64,000 nucleotides of DNA from an uncultured Pseudomonadota bacterium (GCA_902495305.1 CABUWG010000001.1:4784-68783), one strand, 5' to 3'. Positions 10,904 to 13,158 are shown, numbered from the stretch's first letter. Numbers and translations: made by a program. The notes: a model not told the origin generated them from the letters alone.

Positions 10904-11581
10904 TCAGAGGCATTTCCAGCCGTCCCATTTGCCGTTACACTGCCGGCATTCGTCTTCTTTCAGCTTTTGTTTGTCTTGCGGACATTTATAGCTGATATAA
11001 TCGTGTTTTTTGATATAACGCTTACCGTGGCAAAATTGTTCATTCAGCTCTTGTCCGAAACTCATGTCGACCGGCGTCTCTTCGTCACAAGGCCAACACA
11101 TAAAGCGCCAATCCATTAACGGCCGGTCTTCAGGGCATTTGATAACGCTTTTCCTTTGGTGTAGCCAATCATAACGGATTGTCCGGTTTGGGCAACGGTT
11201 ACGGCATTCTTCATTTTGTTCGCAATCATAAGAAATCCGCACGGCCTCTGTTGTTTCGCAACATTTGCACTCCCCGAAAATCCCCTCAAAAGAAGGCCCC
11301 TCACAATCTTTTTCCGAAACAATCGGATAAAAGATGTAGGGTGAAAATCCTTTTTCATTCAACTTGCAATAAACATACGGAGTATCAATAGAAACCACGC
11401 GGTTAGGACAATGCTTCAGACAATTCTCAGGTGTTCCGACTTCAAATGTCTGGGGTGCCTGGCAGTCAAAACACTTACCGTTAACCCAAAAAACGCAGTC
11501 ATTTTTTGCCCACGCTTCAAAAGTACCAAGACTAAAAATTATTCCAGCCAGTCCGAATATTTTATGTATTACACCTCCCAT
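10904..11581 (-). CDS. Cysteine-rich secreted protein, paralog B
   Basis: About 225 aa starting at an ATG with an AAGGAG RBS. It has a signal peptide, more than 20 Cys in repeated CxxC...C...CPNR modules, and clear full-length similarity to the adjacent ORF 11667..12347. Confidence 0.7.
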   Translation of the reverse strand: MGGVIHKIFGLAGIIFSLGTFEAWAKNDCVFWVNGKCFDCQAPQTFEVGTPENCLKHCPNRVVSIDTPYVYCKLNEKGFSPYIFYPIVSEKDCEGPSFEGIFGECKCCETTEAVRISYDCEQNEECRNRCPNRTIRYDWLHQRKSVIKCPEDRPLMDWRFMCWPCDEETPVDMSFGQELNEQFCHGKRYIKKHDYISYKCPQDKQKLKEDECRQCNGKWDGWKCL

Positions 11582-11666
11582 CTTTATCACTCCTTATGAT
11601 AACAAAAATATTATTAAGCGTAATATTTCAAGTAATTACCAACCAAATGTAATAAGTAAAAAACAT

Positions 11667-12347
11667 TTACTTGCATTTTAAGCCTTCCCATTTACCGTTA
11701 CATTGACTGCATTCATCTTCTTTCAATTTTTGTTTATTTTGCGGACATTTATAGCTAATGTAACCGGAACCTCCGAGATAACGCTTTCCTTGGCAGAATT
11801 GTTCATTCAGCTCTTGTCCAAAACTCATGTTAATCGGTGTCTCTTCATCGCAAGACCAGCACATAAAACCCCAATCCATCAACGGCCGGTTTTCCGGACA
11901 TTTGATAACGCTGTATCTTGATGTTACACCATTATAACGGATTGTCCGGTTTGGGCAGCGGTTACGACATTCTTTATCTTGCTCGCAATCATAAGAAATC
12001 CATACAGGTTTTCTTGTGTCACAAGAATAACATTCCCCCCCGCCATTTTCAAAATAATTTTCTTTCAGACAATTTTCTTTCGGAACTTCTGTGTCTTTAT
12101 ATTTGGAATAAGCATCCTTTATCCTTAAGTCACAATGGACGTGTTCATAGTTAAGAGAAACCACGCGGTTAGGACAATGTTTCAAACAATTCTCAGGCGT
12201 TCCGACTTCTAAAGTATGCGTTGTATAGCAGTCAAAACACTCGCCATTAACCAAAAAAACACAATCATCTGCCGCCCGTACTTCAAAAGCGCCGAAACAA
12301 AAAAGAATACCTCCAAGACAGGTAATCGTCCGTATCATATAATCCAT
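11667..12347 (-). CDS. Cysteine-rich secreted protein, paralog A
   Basis: 226 aa with a signal peptide and the same Cys framework (CVFLVNGECFDC..ENCLKHCPNRVVS..ECRNRCPNRTIRY..MCWSCDEETP..). The ATG lies 1 nt after the lysozyme-like gene stop. Confidence 0.7.
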   Translation of the reverse strand: MDYMIRTITCLGGILFCFGAFEVRAADDCVFLVNGECFDCYTTHTLEVGTPENCLKHCPNRVVSLNYEHVHCDLRIKDAYSKYKDTEVPKENCLKENYFENGGGECYSCDTRKPVWISYDCEQDKECRNRCPNRTIRYNGVTSRYSVIKCPENRPLMDWGFMCWSCDEETPINMSFGQELNEQFCQGKRYLGGSGYISYKCPQNKQKLKEDECSQCNGKWEGLKCK

Positions 12348-12348
12348 T

Positions 12349-13158
12349 TTATTTTTTCCCCTTAGTAAAAGCGTCTGTATTAATTTCGGGATAAAAGTTT
12401 TTCATTGTCTCAATATTACGTTTTATTCCGGCACCGTTGCGCCAGGATTCTTTAGCCACTTGTTCCCAATTATTATTATGAATGGCGGCTCTCATATTTT
12501 TATATTTTGAAAACCGGCTTTGTCCCAAAGCATAACTCATATCCATCAGCGCTTTTTGTTGCCCTTCTGTATACTCCCTGAAATTCGGATATTGTTTTAT
12601 TACAACATTGTAGGCATCTTTGTATTTTTCTCTCATTATACGATCATTTTCTTCTGGTGCAATGCGAATATTAGATTTATCTTCATAATAAGAAGCCGAA
12701 AAGTTGGGGCGATGGCTTCTTTTCAGTCTTGCCTCTTCATAAGCATATTCCTGCGGTGTGAGCAGCTTTCCCGTTTGGGCATGATAAGTTTTAACGCCTT
12801 TTGTCTGGTCAAGATTAATACCACAGCCGATAGTCGTATTGGGGTTGGAGGCTGTGTCAAGATAAGCATAGGGAACCATTCCGCCTTCATTTTTACAGAT
12901 ATCCTCTTTGTCACGATTAAAATAGTACAAATATTCTTCATTTTTATCGCAGGGAATGGAATCTATATTATATGAATTCTGGTAGGTATTATTCTGCCTG
13001 TTTTGTTGTTCTTGCAGTTTCTTTTTGCGTTCGGCAATTTTTGCACTCCTTTGTACCGGTGATAGTCCGATTTCCAATGGCGCGCCGCCATATGCCTCTT
13101 CTTCCGGTACACCACCGTAAGCTGCATAACTGGGTACAACTTGAGATCTGTATGTCAT
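12349..13158 (-). CDS. GH24 (T4-type) lysozyme-like protein with disordered N-terminal region, no signal peptide
   Basis: Start chosen at ATG 13158 (AAGGAAAG RBS). Catalytic-type spacing E-x9-D-x7-TIGCG (NEGGMVPYAYLDTASNPNTTIGCGINL) and the C-terminal pattern QQKALMDMSYALGQSRFSKYKNMRAAIHNNNWEQVAKESWRNG mirror the T4 lysozyme layout. Confidence 0.65.
   Translation of the reverse strand: MTYRSQVVPSYAAYGGVPEEEAYGGAPLEIGLSPVQRSAKIAERKKKLQEQQNRQNNTYQNSYNIDSIPCDKNEEYLYYFNRDKEDICKNEGGMVPYAYLDTASNPNTTIGCGINLDQTKGVKTYHAQTGKLLTPQEYAYEEARLKRSHRPNFSASYYEDKSNIRIAPEENDRIMREKYKDAYNVVIKQYPNFREYTEGQQKALMDMSYALGQSRFSKYKNMRAAIHNNNWEQVAKESWRNGAGIKRNIETMKNFYPEINTDAFTKGKK

Follow-up and report, generated by a model that had tools for sequence, protein, structure and literature searches.

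The window, a stretch of 64,000 nucleotides from an uncultured gut alphaproteobacterium, holds three co-directional ORFs on the minus strand, referred to as g1, g2, and g3 herein, which sit between genes for an autotransporter and an MscS channel (Table 1). All three are present as a preliminary description of the sequence had given them, and so is the gap of a single nucleotide that it noted between the stop codon of g1 (TAA, 12351-12349) and the start codon of g2 (ATG, 12347). The upstream autotransporter gene ends in a strong terminator at 13341-13312, and the ATG of g1 at 13158 is preceded by the ribosome-binding site AGGAAAG. A longer g1 starting at TTG 13212 was rejected, since the extension lies 5′ of the ribosome-binding site and is not conserved. 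For g3, the start is more probably the ATG at 11581, which is found 9 nt past AAGGA and matches the length of the 225-aa orthologs (G001, G009, P0006). No secretion genes adjoining the cassette were found among the ORFs around it in the window.

Table 1. Features of the g1-g3 locus. Positions are counted from the first nucleotide of the window.
Feature	Position	Strand	Evidence
g1, signal-less candidate toxin gene, 269 aa from ATG	12349..13158	-	ORF, RBS and ATG, Pfam, AF2, Foldseek
g1 codons 1-53, conserved N-terminal peptide MTYRSQVVPSYAAYGGVPEEEAYGG... (candidate delivery tag)	12999..13158	-	L003 alignment, pLDDT <50
g1 GH24-like catalytic domain, ∼aa 75-269, E91/D101/T109	12352..12936	-	conservation, pLDDT 77-91, T4 lysozyme fold match
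g2, secreted Cys-rich protein, 226 aa, candidate immunity protein 1	11667..12347	-	ORF, signal peptide, AF2
g3, g2 paralog, 228 aa, candidate immunity protein 2	10904..11590	-	ORF, orthologs
Exchangeable cassette: toxin C-domain and both immunity candidates	10900..12998	.	blastn breakpoints vs L003, GC
Convergent remnant of 151-aa secreted protein (p151), partner family of the GH108 variant	10441..10897	+	tblastn
HTH gene at islet border, in-frame TGA at 9986-9988	9629..10321	-	tblastn vs L003 243-aa protein

The product of g1 consists, in order, of an N-terminal peptide that we call the tag, a disordered or helical linker, and a T4-lysozyme-like (GH24-type) domain. The catalytic layout E-x9-D-x7-TIGCG pointed out in the preliminary description is present as NEGGMVPYAYLDTASNPNTTIGCG, and in an alignment across 10 homologs D101 and T109 are invariant and E91 is nearly so. 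The catalytic residues of T4 lysozyme are E11-D20-T26, and the spacing E-x9-D-x7-T in g1 is longer. Pfam places PF00959 (Phage_lysozyme) on residues 165-244 of g1 with 24.4 bits against a cut-off of 22.3, a match that is real but marginal, and homologs of g1 score 17.5-23.1 bits with the same model. When PDB sequences were searched with a profile of the family (A1), T4 gp5 and T4 lysozyme chains were matched with E-values of 3e-4 to 1e-3; these matches include 6xc0 and 7cn7, both chains of the gp5 lysozyme domain. In the AF2 model of g1, the fold begins near residue 75, and pLDDT is ∼80-90 across residues 75-250. Foldseek analysis of this model gave T4 lysozyme as the best PDB matches, with a probability of 1.00, a target-normalised TM of ∼0.6, and 17% identity. 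Taken together, the Pfam score, the profile matches, and the predicted fold support the C-terminal domain of g1 as a predicted T4-type muramidase, the identity proposed for it at the outset.

The model also delimits the remainder of the protein. Ahead of the lysozyme domain, it shows nothing but coil of low confidence and a single helix, with pLDDT <50 at residues 1-32 and 52-66. Judged by pLDDT, the disordered part covers ∼65-75 aa, which corrects the N-region of ∼100 aa originally described. At the other end, the C-terminus lies 3 residues beyond the last helix of the lysozyme domain. We found no signal peptide in g1, as the preliminary description had it: over its first 75 aa, Kyte-Doolittle(15) values peak at 0.43, as compared with 1.9 in g2 and g3.

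The two remaining proteins bear out their description as paralogs with signal peptides and Cys-rich CxxC/CPNR modules. They share 63% identity (E = 3e-102), and each carries two CPNR motifs and four CxxC motifs; g2 contains 22 Cys residues and g3 contains 21, of which 20 and 21, respectively, follow the signal peptide. Identity to g2 is just 15-30% in a central segment of g3 (∼aa 70-115). Neither protein has a lipobox. The AF2 model of g2 is a confident one (pLDDT 77.5, pTM 0.72), and the fold, which had not been recognized from the sequence, finds no match in PDB or BFVD with Foldseek at E ≤ 0.001. Searches with g2 likewise gave no family in Pfam or NCBIfam at E ≤ 1 and no PDB sequence with either a single sequence or a profile. 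By sequence and fold searches, g2 and g3 show no likeness to Ivy, MliC/PliC, PliI, PliG, LprI, Pim, or Spackle. The Cys-rich repeat itself follows the pattern CP-x-x-[RK]-PLMD ... CxxCD ... CPNR and is found in 181 representative clusters, some of them multi-repeat proteins that reach 1616 aa in length. Among five such proteins whose sequences we read, P0025 and P0039 have type IV pilin-like N-termini. On the evidence of these sequences, the repeat is not exclusive to an immunity role.

Comparison with a sister strain (L003) revealed that the locus is subject to exchange. Between the same autotransporter and MscS channel genes, codons 1-53 of g1 are kept in L003 and are followed by a GH108 domain. 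The N-terminal codons share 85% nucleotide identity up to position 12999. In blastn, window positions 9401-10899 and 12999-13500 align with L003 and the segment between them does not. The breakpoints of the swap are at 12998/12999, which is the junction of the N-domain and the toxin, and at 10899/10900. Window 10900-12998, comprising the lysozyme domain and both Cys-rich genes, is replaced in L003 by a GH108 domain of 0.59 kb, and no Cys-rich genes are present at the L003 locus. The GC content of the cassette is 0.358 vs 0.44-0.46 in the flanks.

The tag that is retained in this exchange carries the motif VP-S/T/E-Y/F-x-AYGG-V/T-P, a linear motif that is invariant within a disordered region. 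The preliminary description had suggested looking for N-terminal marker domains, and none was matched by this N-terminus in Pfam, NCBIfam, or PHROG. An indexed search of a 5.8-billion-protein database with the N-terminal 62 aa of g1 yielded 3 proteins, and the family emerged from a six-frame search of genomes. The tag was found by that search in 26 of the 201 genomes of the bacterial family, and a single genome can hold as many as 6 copies. In a class-wide sample of 401 genomes, it was present in the window's own genome only (0 of the 400 others). Among the tagged genes of the family genomes, the tag is fused to at least 11 classes of C-terminal domain, namely GH24-like, GH108, SLT-like, VgrG3_C, Tlde1, SAA-like, and at least five classes to which no domain could be assigned. 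The Pfam matches on tagged proteins include GH108 (PF05838, 8e-19), T6SS_VgrG3-like_C (PF21277, 9e-35), Tlde1 (PF10908, 1e-9), and SAA (PF00277, 1.5e-14), and two of these, VgrG3_C and Tlde1, are bona fide antibacterial effector domains. P0021 and P0022 are GH108 proteins with a g1-type N-terminus. A comparable arrangement is seen at L040, where a second, related N-terminus is common to three tandem genes that have three different C-domains and a neighbour each of their own.

Genes next to the tagged ones follow a regular pattern. A Cys-rich gene adjoins the toxin gene in 12 of 13 GH24-like toxin loci, the exception (G168) having a different secreted neighbour. Within the genus, 4 of 11 genomes carry the lysozyme gene, and these four are also the ones that carry Cys-rich genes, adjacent to it every time. 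For each of the four metagenomic lysozyme homologs consulted, a Cys-rich gene comes next, its start codon overlapping the stop codon before it, and the pairing holds even where the lysozyme domains are only 17-20% identical. The distance matrices of the lysozyme domain and its Cys-rich neighbour are correlated (Mantel r = 0.94, p = 0.0002), as expected for any tightly linked genes. Other toxin domains have other partners: GH108 toxins pair with the p151 family (L003, G118), VgrG3_C toxins with a secreted family of 154/177 aa (G021, G142), and SLT-like toxins with a 13-Cys family of 198/208 aa (G168, G088). By and large, the secreted neighbour family is specific to the class of toxin domain. 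The partner tracks the catalytic domain and not the tag, as would be expected if it bound directly to the enzyme.

The same observation bears on the role of g2 and g3. If g1 were a toxin and g2 and g3 were not its inhibitors, they could instead be co-factors, for instance separately exported subunits that bind a receptor or act as a carrier, or they could be decoys. The repeat does resemble a general extracellular binding module, given its long arrays and pilin fusions, and it is similar to no known lysozyme inhibitor that we searched for. We consider these roles unlikely, as the partner family follows the catalytic domain rather than the N-terminal tag, and the stop/start coupling and the duplication of the Cys-rich gene, or its triplication in G001, are typical of immunity genes. 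Moreover, Cys-rich genes that have no toxin gene beside them are consistent with orphan immunity. The preliminary description would have taken Cys-rich homologs occurring mostly apart from lysozymes as evidence against its reading, and this is not what we observed: they stand beside one at 12 loci and without one at 5 (G016, G023, L043, L045, and L047).

Taken together, the cassette swap, the shared tag, the domain-specific neighbours, and the co-divergence support the effector/immunity reading of the trio that was first proposed from the gene order, on a basis of comparative genomics. We think it quite probable that the trio belongs, as a single cassette, to a polymorphic toxin/immunity system specific to this lineage. 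Since g1 is predicted to be a signal-less peptidoglycan hydrolase and its partners carry signal peptides, the enzyme would have to reach a periplasm from outside. We infer that g1 is toxic, that g2 and g3 inhibit it, and that the tag has a role in delivery. In the mechanism that we propose, g1, lacking a signal peptide, would stay in the cytoplasm after synthesis and would there be harmless to the producer. Its disordered N-terminal peptide of ∼55 aa, with the motif VP-S-Y-x-AYGGVP, may serve in export from the producer, in entry into the target, or in both, and the T4-lysozyme-type muramidase would cut peptidoglycan upon reaching the periplasm of a neighbour. The products of g2 and g3 would be exported by Sec as disulfide-rich periplasmic proteins that bind and block this muramidase domain, so that the producer and its kin would be protected from incoming toxin or from leakage. 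The duplication of these genes and the divergence of the central segment could provide broader or backup protection, and recombination immediately after the N-terminal tag would bring in new toxin/immunity cassettes in exchange for old ones.

A phage origin was also considered, in which g1 would be a prophage-remnant endolysin or a virion lysin and the Cys-rich proteins would be accessory or Spackle-like superinfection-exclusion factors. The fold and the best sequence matches of g1 are indeed those of T4 lysozyme and the T4 gp5 tail lysozyme, the islet is AT-rich, and a homologous cassette (L042) adjoins phage head genes, with genes for a major head protein, a tail protein, and an amidase coming immediately downstream of the pair. 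ORFs adjoining the tagged genes of G168 also appear phage-like, by eye alone. Despite this, no phage genes flank the cassette in the window or at L001, L038, or L040, no holin or spanin was found nearby, and relatives of the lysozyme and the Cys-rich proteins were not found in IMG/VR. In PHROGs, g1 has a single weak match, whose function is unknown, and g2 has no match. Sharing an N-terminal tag with Tlde1, VgrG3_C, and SAA domains is not a trait of endolysins, and we regard a role in phage lysis or in the virion as very unlikely. It is similarly improbable that g1 is a VirB1-like helper that opens the wall for assembly of a type IVb pilus or T4SS, with g2 and g3 as pilus-associated or adhesin-like proteins: type IV pilin N-termini are fused to the Cys-rich repeats in P0025 and P0039, the repeats adjoin pilin genes at L047 and L043, and contig C10 of the same genome carries a cluster for a type IVb pilus next to a VirB4/B8/B9 T4SS, but the cassette is on 1 of 86 contigs, away from that cluster, and occurs in 4 of 11 genus genomes vs 24 of 24 tested for the T4SS, the N-terminus is multi-copy, swapped between strains, and common with VgrG3_C, Tlde1, SAA-like, and other domains, and a helper acting in the periplasm needs a signal peptide, which g1 lacks.

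The toxin/immunity reading can be set beside several known systems. Polymorphic toxin systems such as CdiA-CT/CdiI, Rhs-CT/RhsI, and MuF toxins, reportedly the subject of Zhang et al. 2012 and Jamet et al. 2017, resemble the g1 family in having a constant N-part with exchangeable C-domains, a downstream immunity candidate, orphan immunity, and recombination at the junction. They differ in that the N-part of g1 is a short disordered peptide (∼55-100 aa) with no Pfam or PHROG family; we found no MuF, TPS, PAAR, LXG, or similar domain in g1 and no recognizable trafficking domain, and five homologs of g1 likewise gave no MuF match. With regard to inhibition, T4 Spackle (gp61.3) is a small phage protein for superinfection exclusion, which is exported by Sec and blocks, in the periplasm, a T4-type lysozyme (gp5) coming from outside. 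Spackle has no sequence or fold relation to g2 and g3. To our knowledge, few natural inhibitors of T4-type lysozymes have been described (Pim and Spackle), and if g2 and g3 inhibit g1, they would constitute a new class of protein inhibitor of these enzymes.

Pesticin of Yersinia pestis is signal-less and joins a disordered N-terminal translocation segment to a T4-lysozyme-like muramidase domain, and its periplasmic immunity protein, Pim, is encoded alongside (PMC3390615). The same can be said of g1, which is signal-less, has a disordered N-terminus and a T4-lysozyme-like domain, and is encoded alongside secreted partners. Unlike pesticin, which has a folded receptor-binding domain and requires a TonB box, TonB, and the TonB-dependent receptor FyuA (PMC3390615), g1 passes from the tag to the lysozyme without an intervening folded domain in the AF2 model, its tag is common to many other toxin domains, and g2 and g3 are Cys-rich repeat proteins unrelated to Pim. 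Furthermore, the g1 lineage lacks TonB_C (0 of 10 genomes) and TonB-dependent receptors (TonB_dep_Rec above cut-off in 0 of 14 genomes), on which grounds we rejected a TonB-dependent, pesticin-like uptake.

Wall-degrading toxins that act in the periplasm and have adjacent genes for periplasmic immunity proteins are also known from the T6SS pairs VgrG3/TsiV3, Tse3/Tsi3, and Tlde1/Tldi1 and from pesticin-domain VgrGs (PMC9620997, PMC9927483). Siblings of g1 with the same tag carry VgrG3_C and Tlde1 domains; in contrast to those pairs, the g1 system is without TssC, PAAR, VgrG, MIX, or other known T6SS adaptor domains. The X-Tfe/X-Tfi pairs of Xanthomonadales, which belong to a T4SS that kills bacteria, consist of signal-less peptidoglycan hydrolases, recognized via a C-terminal XVIPCD, and periplasmic immunity proteins (PMC6536674, PMC8740702, PMC10933484). 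Here, too, g1 is signal-less and is found in a lineage with a VirB4-type T4SS. In g1, however, the conserved part lies at the N-terminus and the lysozyme domain comes last; since the chain stops 3 residues past the last lysozyme helix, there is, judged by length, no room for an XVIPCD of ∼120 aa. In contrast to X-Tfi proteins, g2 and g3 are without a lipobox.

The search for export loci that the preliminary description had recommended gave a divided outcome, negative for a T6SS and positive for a T4SS. TssC/VipB (PF05943) was detected in 0 of 1 own genome and in 0 of 41 family genomes, and T6SS delivery was rejected upon its absence from 41 of 41 family genomes. VirB4 was detected in 24 of 24 genomes tested, its presence not tracking the tag, and VirB8 and VirB9 are present on contig C10 of the window genome. 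Flagellar type III export was rejected as a general route, as 3 of 13 genomes with the tag (G168, G142, and G111) lack FlhA. Export by a double-glycine leader and PCAT was rejected from sequence inspection, given the Pro residues before the GG pairs and the lack of an amphipathic leader pattern. TolB_N was found in 10 of 10 genomes; no TolB- or TolA-box was assigned, and no lysis gene was found. A T4SS and Tol-dependent, colicin-like uptake are the live candidate routes.

A joint reading that goes further is possible, and we advance it tentatively as one to which we do not yet lean. The tag VP-x-Y/F-x-AYGG-V/T-P would be the address of an undescribed delivery route for periplasm-acting antibacterial toxins, and the Cys-rich repeat would represent a novel disulfide-rich fold with inhibitory activity toward T4-type (GH24) lysozymes. 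The address would be used either by an antibacterial T4SS that reads an N-terminal signal or by a Tol-dependent bacteriocin uptake that dispenses with a receptor domain. Although the genomes of this uncultured family of gut Alphaproteobacteria are small and lack a T6SS, they encode diverse, strain-variable candidate toxins for wall degradation behind one short tag. Finding the reader of the tag would add a mode of delivery to the catalogue of interbacterial weapons, and it would provide a transferable tag with which enzymes could be brought into the periplasm of Gram-negative bacteria. In addition, the tag offers a simple way to mine new toxin domains, including the five or more classes that are unassigned, along with immunity genes.

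Two genes next to the cassette appear damaged in the assembled sequence, as pseudogenes or through assembly errors. The remnant of p151 is frameshifted near an A-run at ∼10520-10535, as tblastn aligns only residues 32-151 in one frame and the signal peptide is found in another. The p151 gene is intact in L003 and G001, and a member of its family adjoins the GH108 toxin gene in G118. In the HTH gene, the TGA at 9986-9988 takes the place of a Trp codon in relatives, and the gene is intact in L003 (243 aa), G001, G002, and G009.

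ORF calling on the window recovered the three co-directional minus-strand genes of the preliminary description, a GH24-like lysozyme gene (g1) followed by two tandem genes for Cys-rich secreted paralogs (g2 and g3), along with the 1-nt gap between the g1 stop and the g2 start. The organism is represented by metagenome-assembled genomes alone. Since the g1 ATG is preceded by a ribosome-binding site (AGGAAAG) and, farther upstream, by a strong terminator of the autotransporter gene (13341-13312), g1 begins its own transcription unit. For g3, the ATG at 11581 is the more likely start, as it lies 9 nt beyond AAGGA and agrees with the 225-aa orthologs. 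The islet holding these genes is AT-rich (GC 0.358 vs ∼0.45 in the flanks).

Genes of the islet and its borders (window coordinates)
Feature	Position	Strand	Remarks
g1	12349..13158	-	269 aa from ATG
g2	11667..12347	-	ORF; ATG 1 nt past g1 TAA
g3	10904..11590	-	ORF; more likely start ATG 11581
151-aa secreted protein gene	10441-10897	+	convergent; frameshifted
HTH gene	9629-10321	-	one in-frame TGA, 9986-9988
Autotransporter gene	13374-16475		adjacent

Consistent with what had been claimed for g1, we found no hydrophobic segment that could serve as a signal peptide, and the protein carries NEGGMVPYAYLDTASNPNTTIGCG, a T4-lysozyme-like catalytic layout of the form E-x9-D-x7-TIGCG. The Pfam Phage_lysozyme model barely passes its cut-off (24.4 bits vs 22.3), and a profile built from g1 and nine homologs matched T4 gp5 and T4 lysozyme chains with E = 3e-4 to 1e-3. 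In an AlphaFold model based on the same alignment, residues 1-66 are disordered or of low confidence and the protein is well folded from ∼75 to its C-terminus; the Foldseek search that had been proposed for g1 returned T4 lysozyme entries as the top PDB matches (probability 1.0, target-normalised TM ∼0.6). The homologs conserve D101 and T109 without exception and E91 almost without exception. Based on these scores, matches, and conserved residues, we accept g1 as a putative T4-type (GH24-like) muramidase domain following a ∼70-aa disordered N-terminus. The g1 ortholog of genome G009 (L037 6430-7320; 296 aa) has an altered, longer C-terminus that overlaps the following gene, probably due to a frameshift close to the 3′ end.

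The products of g2 and g3 are paralogs as described (63% identity, E = 3e-102) and have the expected hydrophobic signal-type N-termini, with 20 or 21 mature cysteines and two CPNR and four CxxC motifs apiece. They diverge mainly in a central segment (∼aa 70-115; 15-30% identity, compared with 75-90% in the flanks), which, speculatively, would fit a specificity-determining surface. Single-sequence and profile searches gave no match in Pfam, NCBIfam, or PDB sequences. A fairly confident AlphaFold model of g2 (pLDDT 77.5, pTM 0.72) consists chiefly of short beta-hairpins, and Foldseek retrieved nothing for it from PDB and BFVD at E ≤ 0.001. The alignment revealed a repeat unit, CP-x-x-[RK]-PL-x-D ... 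C-x-x-C-[DE] ... C-x-x-x-CPNR ... C, whose HMM matched just 181 clusters among 1.84 billion representative proteins. Many of these are long arrays of up to 15 stretches and 1616 aa, and two of the five sequences read, P0025 and P0039, have a type IV prepilin-like N-terminus. From these features, the repeat is predicted to be a rare extracellular disulfide-rich module, and g2 and g3 to be small secreted versions of it that stand alone.

A direct view of how the locus varies came from L003, a metagenomic sister-strain locus with a matching neighborhood (flavodoxin, autotransporter, [toxin], HTH, MscS channel, CNNM, YkuD, DUF308, MatE). Its toxin shares the first ∼53 residues of g1, continues into a GH108 domain, and has no Cys-rich genes beside it. 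The blastn breakpoints fall at 12998/12999, where the N-terminal peptide has just ended, and at 10899/10900, directly past the g3 stop; hence, the exchanged unit consists of exactly the toxin domain and both Cys-rich genes. The convergent 151-aa protein gene, intact in this sister strain and in G001, is frameshifted in the window in an A-run near 10520-10535, which leaves its signal peptide and mature part in separate frames. This fits a decaying immunity gene of a displaced GH108 cassette. The adjacent autotransporter and its L003 counterpart (4539-7778) share the signal peptide and beta-barrel and differ in the N-terminal passenger region. In the HTH gene, the TGA replaces a Trp of the intact 243-aa orthologs (L003, G001, G002, G009), and the frame beyond it remains open and conserved (66% identity over 238 aa). 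A nonsense mutation, an error of assembly, or read-through of the codon could each account for the interruption.

The N-terminal peptide itself is shared widely. Its profile, with M1, Y3, V8, P9, A13, Y14, G15, G16, V17, P18, and G24 invariant, matched proteins in 26 of 201 genomes of the GTDB family, at up to six copies per genome, and in a class-wide sample of 401 genomes matched the window's own genome only. Tagged proteins carry at least 11 C-terminal classes, including GH24-like, GH108, SLT-like, T6SS_VgrG3-like_C (E = 9e-35), Tlde1 (E = 1e-9), serum-amyloid-A (SAA)-like (E = 1.5e-14), and several without assignment. At L040, a tandem of three genes has a second type of N-terminus in common, linked to the first by a G021 protein with both motifs; their C-domains are unknown, GH24-like, and SLT-like, and every one of the three precedes a small gene of its own. 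The SAA-like domain in the toxin slot occurs in a G206 toxin (L089 1330-1908; PF00277, E = 1.5e-14); a G021 toxin (L034 4107-4874) resembles SAA by eye, has no Pfam match at E ≤ 0.1, and forms a separate cluster. A small secreted or Cys-containing gene comes after each.

The neighboring gene follows the catalytic class. GH24-like toxins are partnered by the Cys-rich family, GH108 toxins by the 151-aa secreted family (L003, G118), VgrG3_C toxins by a 154/177-aa secreted family (G021, G142), and SLT-like toxins by a 198/208-aa 13-Cys family (G168, G088). Of the 11 genomes of the genus, the same four have both lysozyme and Cys-rich genes, always side by side and with three copies in G001, and all four metagenomic lysozyme homologs examined, in four distinct chromosomal contexts, have a Cys-rich gene next with stop and start overlapping. 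The pairing is kept in G011, G028, G070, and the P0010 locus, whose lysozyme domains are only 17-20% identical to g1. Distance matrices of 11 pairs are correlated (Mantel r = 0.94, p = 0.0002), as expected of linked genes, but this does show the two traveling as one unit. Cys-rich homologs occurring mostly without a lysozyme neighbor, named by the preliminary description as evidence against its reading, were not what we found: 12 loci have the neighbor and five (G016, G023, L043, L045, L047) lack it. At L038 (3612-7074), the pair is flanked by a complete DegT-type aminotransferase gene on one side and by a 179-aa piece of DegT on the other, the pattern expected had a two-gene cassette inserted with partial target duplication. 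A second small secreted family, marked by the motif FVNPIFYQPLRP and a possible alternative source of immunity, recurs by tagged toxins (L042 9-440; L086 2005-2472; L095 1390-1908) and adjoins the G168 toxin, the sole GH24-like toxin without a Cys-rich neighbor.

We read g1 as a candidate interbacterial muramidase toxin that would be delivered by means of its N-terminal peptide, acting as a tag, and inhibited in the periplasm by its cognate partners g2/g3, because the topology follows the logic of pesticin/Pim (PMC3390615), T6SS wall-targeting effectors, and X-T4SS effectors, for which cis-protection has been demonstrated as well (PMC10933484). A signal-less peptidoglycan hydrolase would do no harm in the producer's cytoplasm, and a Sec-exported partner specific to its catalytic domain would be useful only if the enzyme reached a periplasm, from outside or via leakage. 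The Cys-rich proteins might instead be co-factors. The fusion of the repeats to pilin N-termini suggests another reading, in which g1 helps to assemble the pilus or T4SS and the Cys-rich proteins are associated with pili, but this leaves unexplained the patchy, strain-variable, multi-copy, domain-swapping pattern and the absent signal peptide of g1. The repeat unit builds 700-1000-aa proteins that start prepilin-like (P0025 and P0039; ..GRSMVEI..), and stand-alone Cys-rich genes lie directly beside pilin genes at L047 (3952-4707) and L043 (3463-4023), so the module may have a further function on pili. We consider it unlikely that g1 is a phage lysis or virion enzyme: one cassette (P0020; L042 634-6764) directly precedes phage genes, which encode a major head protein (phrog_9953, E = 3e-104), a tail protein, and an amidase, the sole phage-linked case seen, but the window cassette and three of four metagenomic loci have no phage genes around them, IMG/VR holds no relatives of the lysozyme or Cys-rich family, and the tag also occurs on non-lytic domains.

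As a toxin with cognate inhibitors, the system would work like a polymorphic toxin/immunity system, closest to pesticin/Pim. It differs from pesticin-type bacteriocins in that the lineage has no TonB system and g1 no receptor-binding domain, from T6SS effectors in that the lineage has no T6SS, and from X-Tfes in that g1 leaves no space for a recognition domain at its C-terminus. Searches of Pfam, NCBIfam, PHROGs, PDB, and BFVD linked neither the tag nor the Cys-rich immunity candidate to a described family.

Among the export loci proposed for searching, T6SS was not found, with TssC absent from the own genome and from 41 of 41 family genomes. The pesticin/group-B route is excluded in this lineage because TonB_C was found in 0 of 10 genomes and TonB-dependent receptors above cut-off in 0 of 14. 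Flagellar export is ruled out as a general route since FlhA, present in the own genome, is missing from 3 of 13 tag-bearing genomes. VirB4-type T4SS was detected in 24 of 24 family genomes, and so looks like a core trait, and TolB in 10 of 10. This survey therefore leaves two feasible candidates, contact-dependent delivery by the T4SS or colicin-like Tol-dependent uptake via the disordered N-terminus. The former would be unusual, as the known T4SS effectors that act on bacteria depend on an XVIPCD at the C-terminus. In the own genome, the T4SS lies outside the window on contig C10 (12000-42000; L053, L054), back-to-back with a type IVb pilus cluster (T2SSE ATPase, T2SSF, secretin, PilO-like), and comprises VirB4, homologs of VirB8 and VirB9/CagX, a VirB10-position protein with beta-flower repeats, and a 1399-aa secreted protein.
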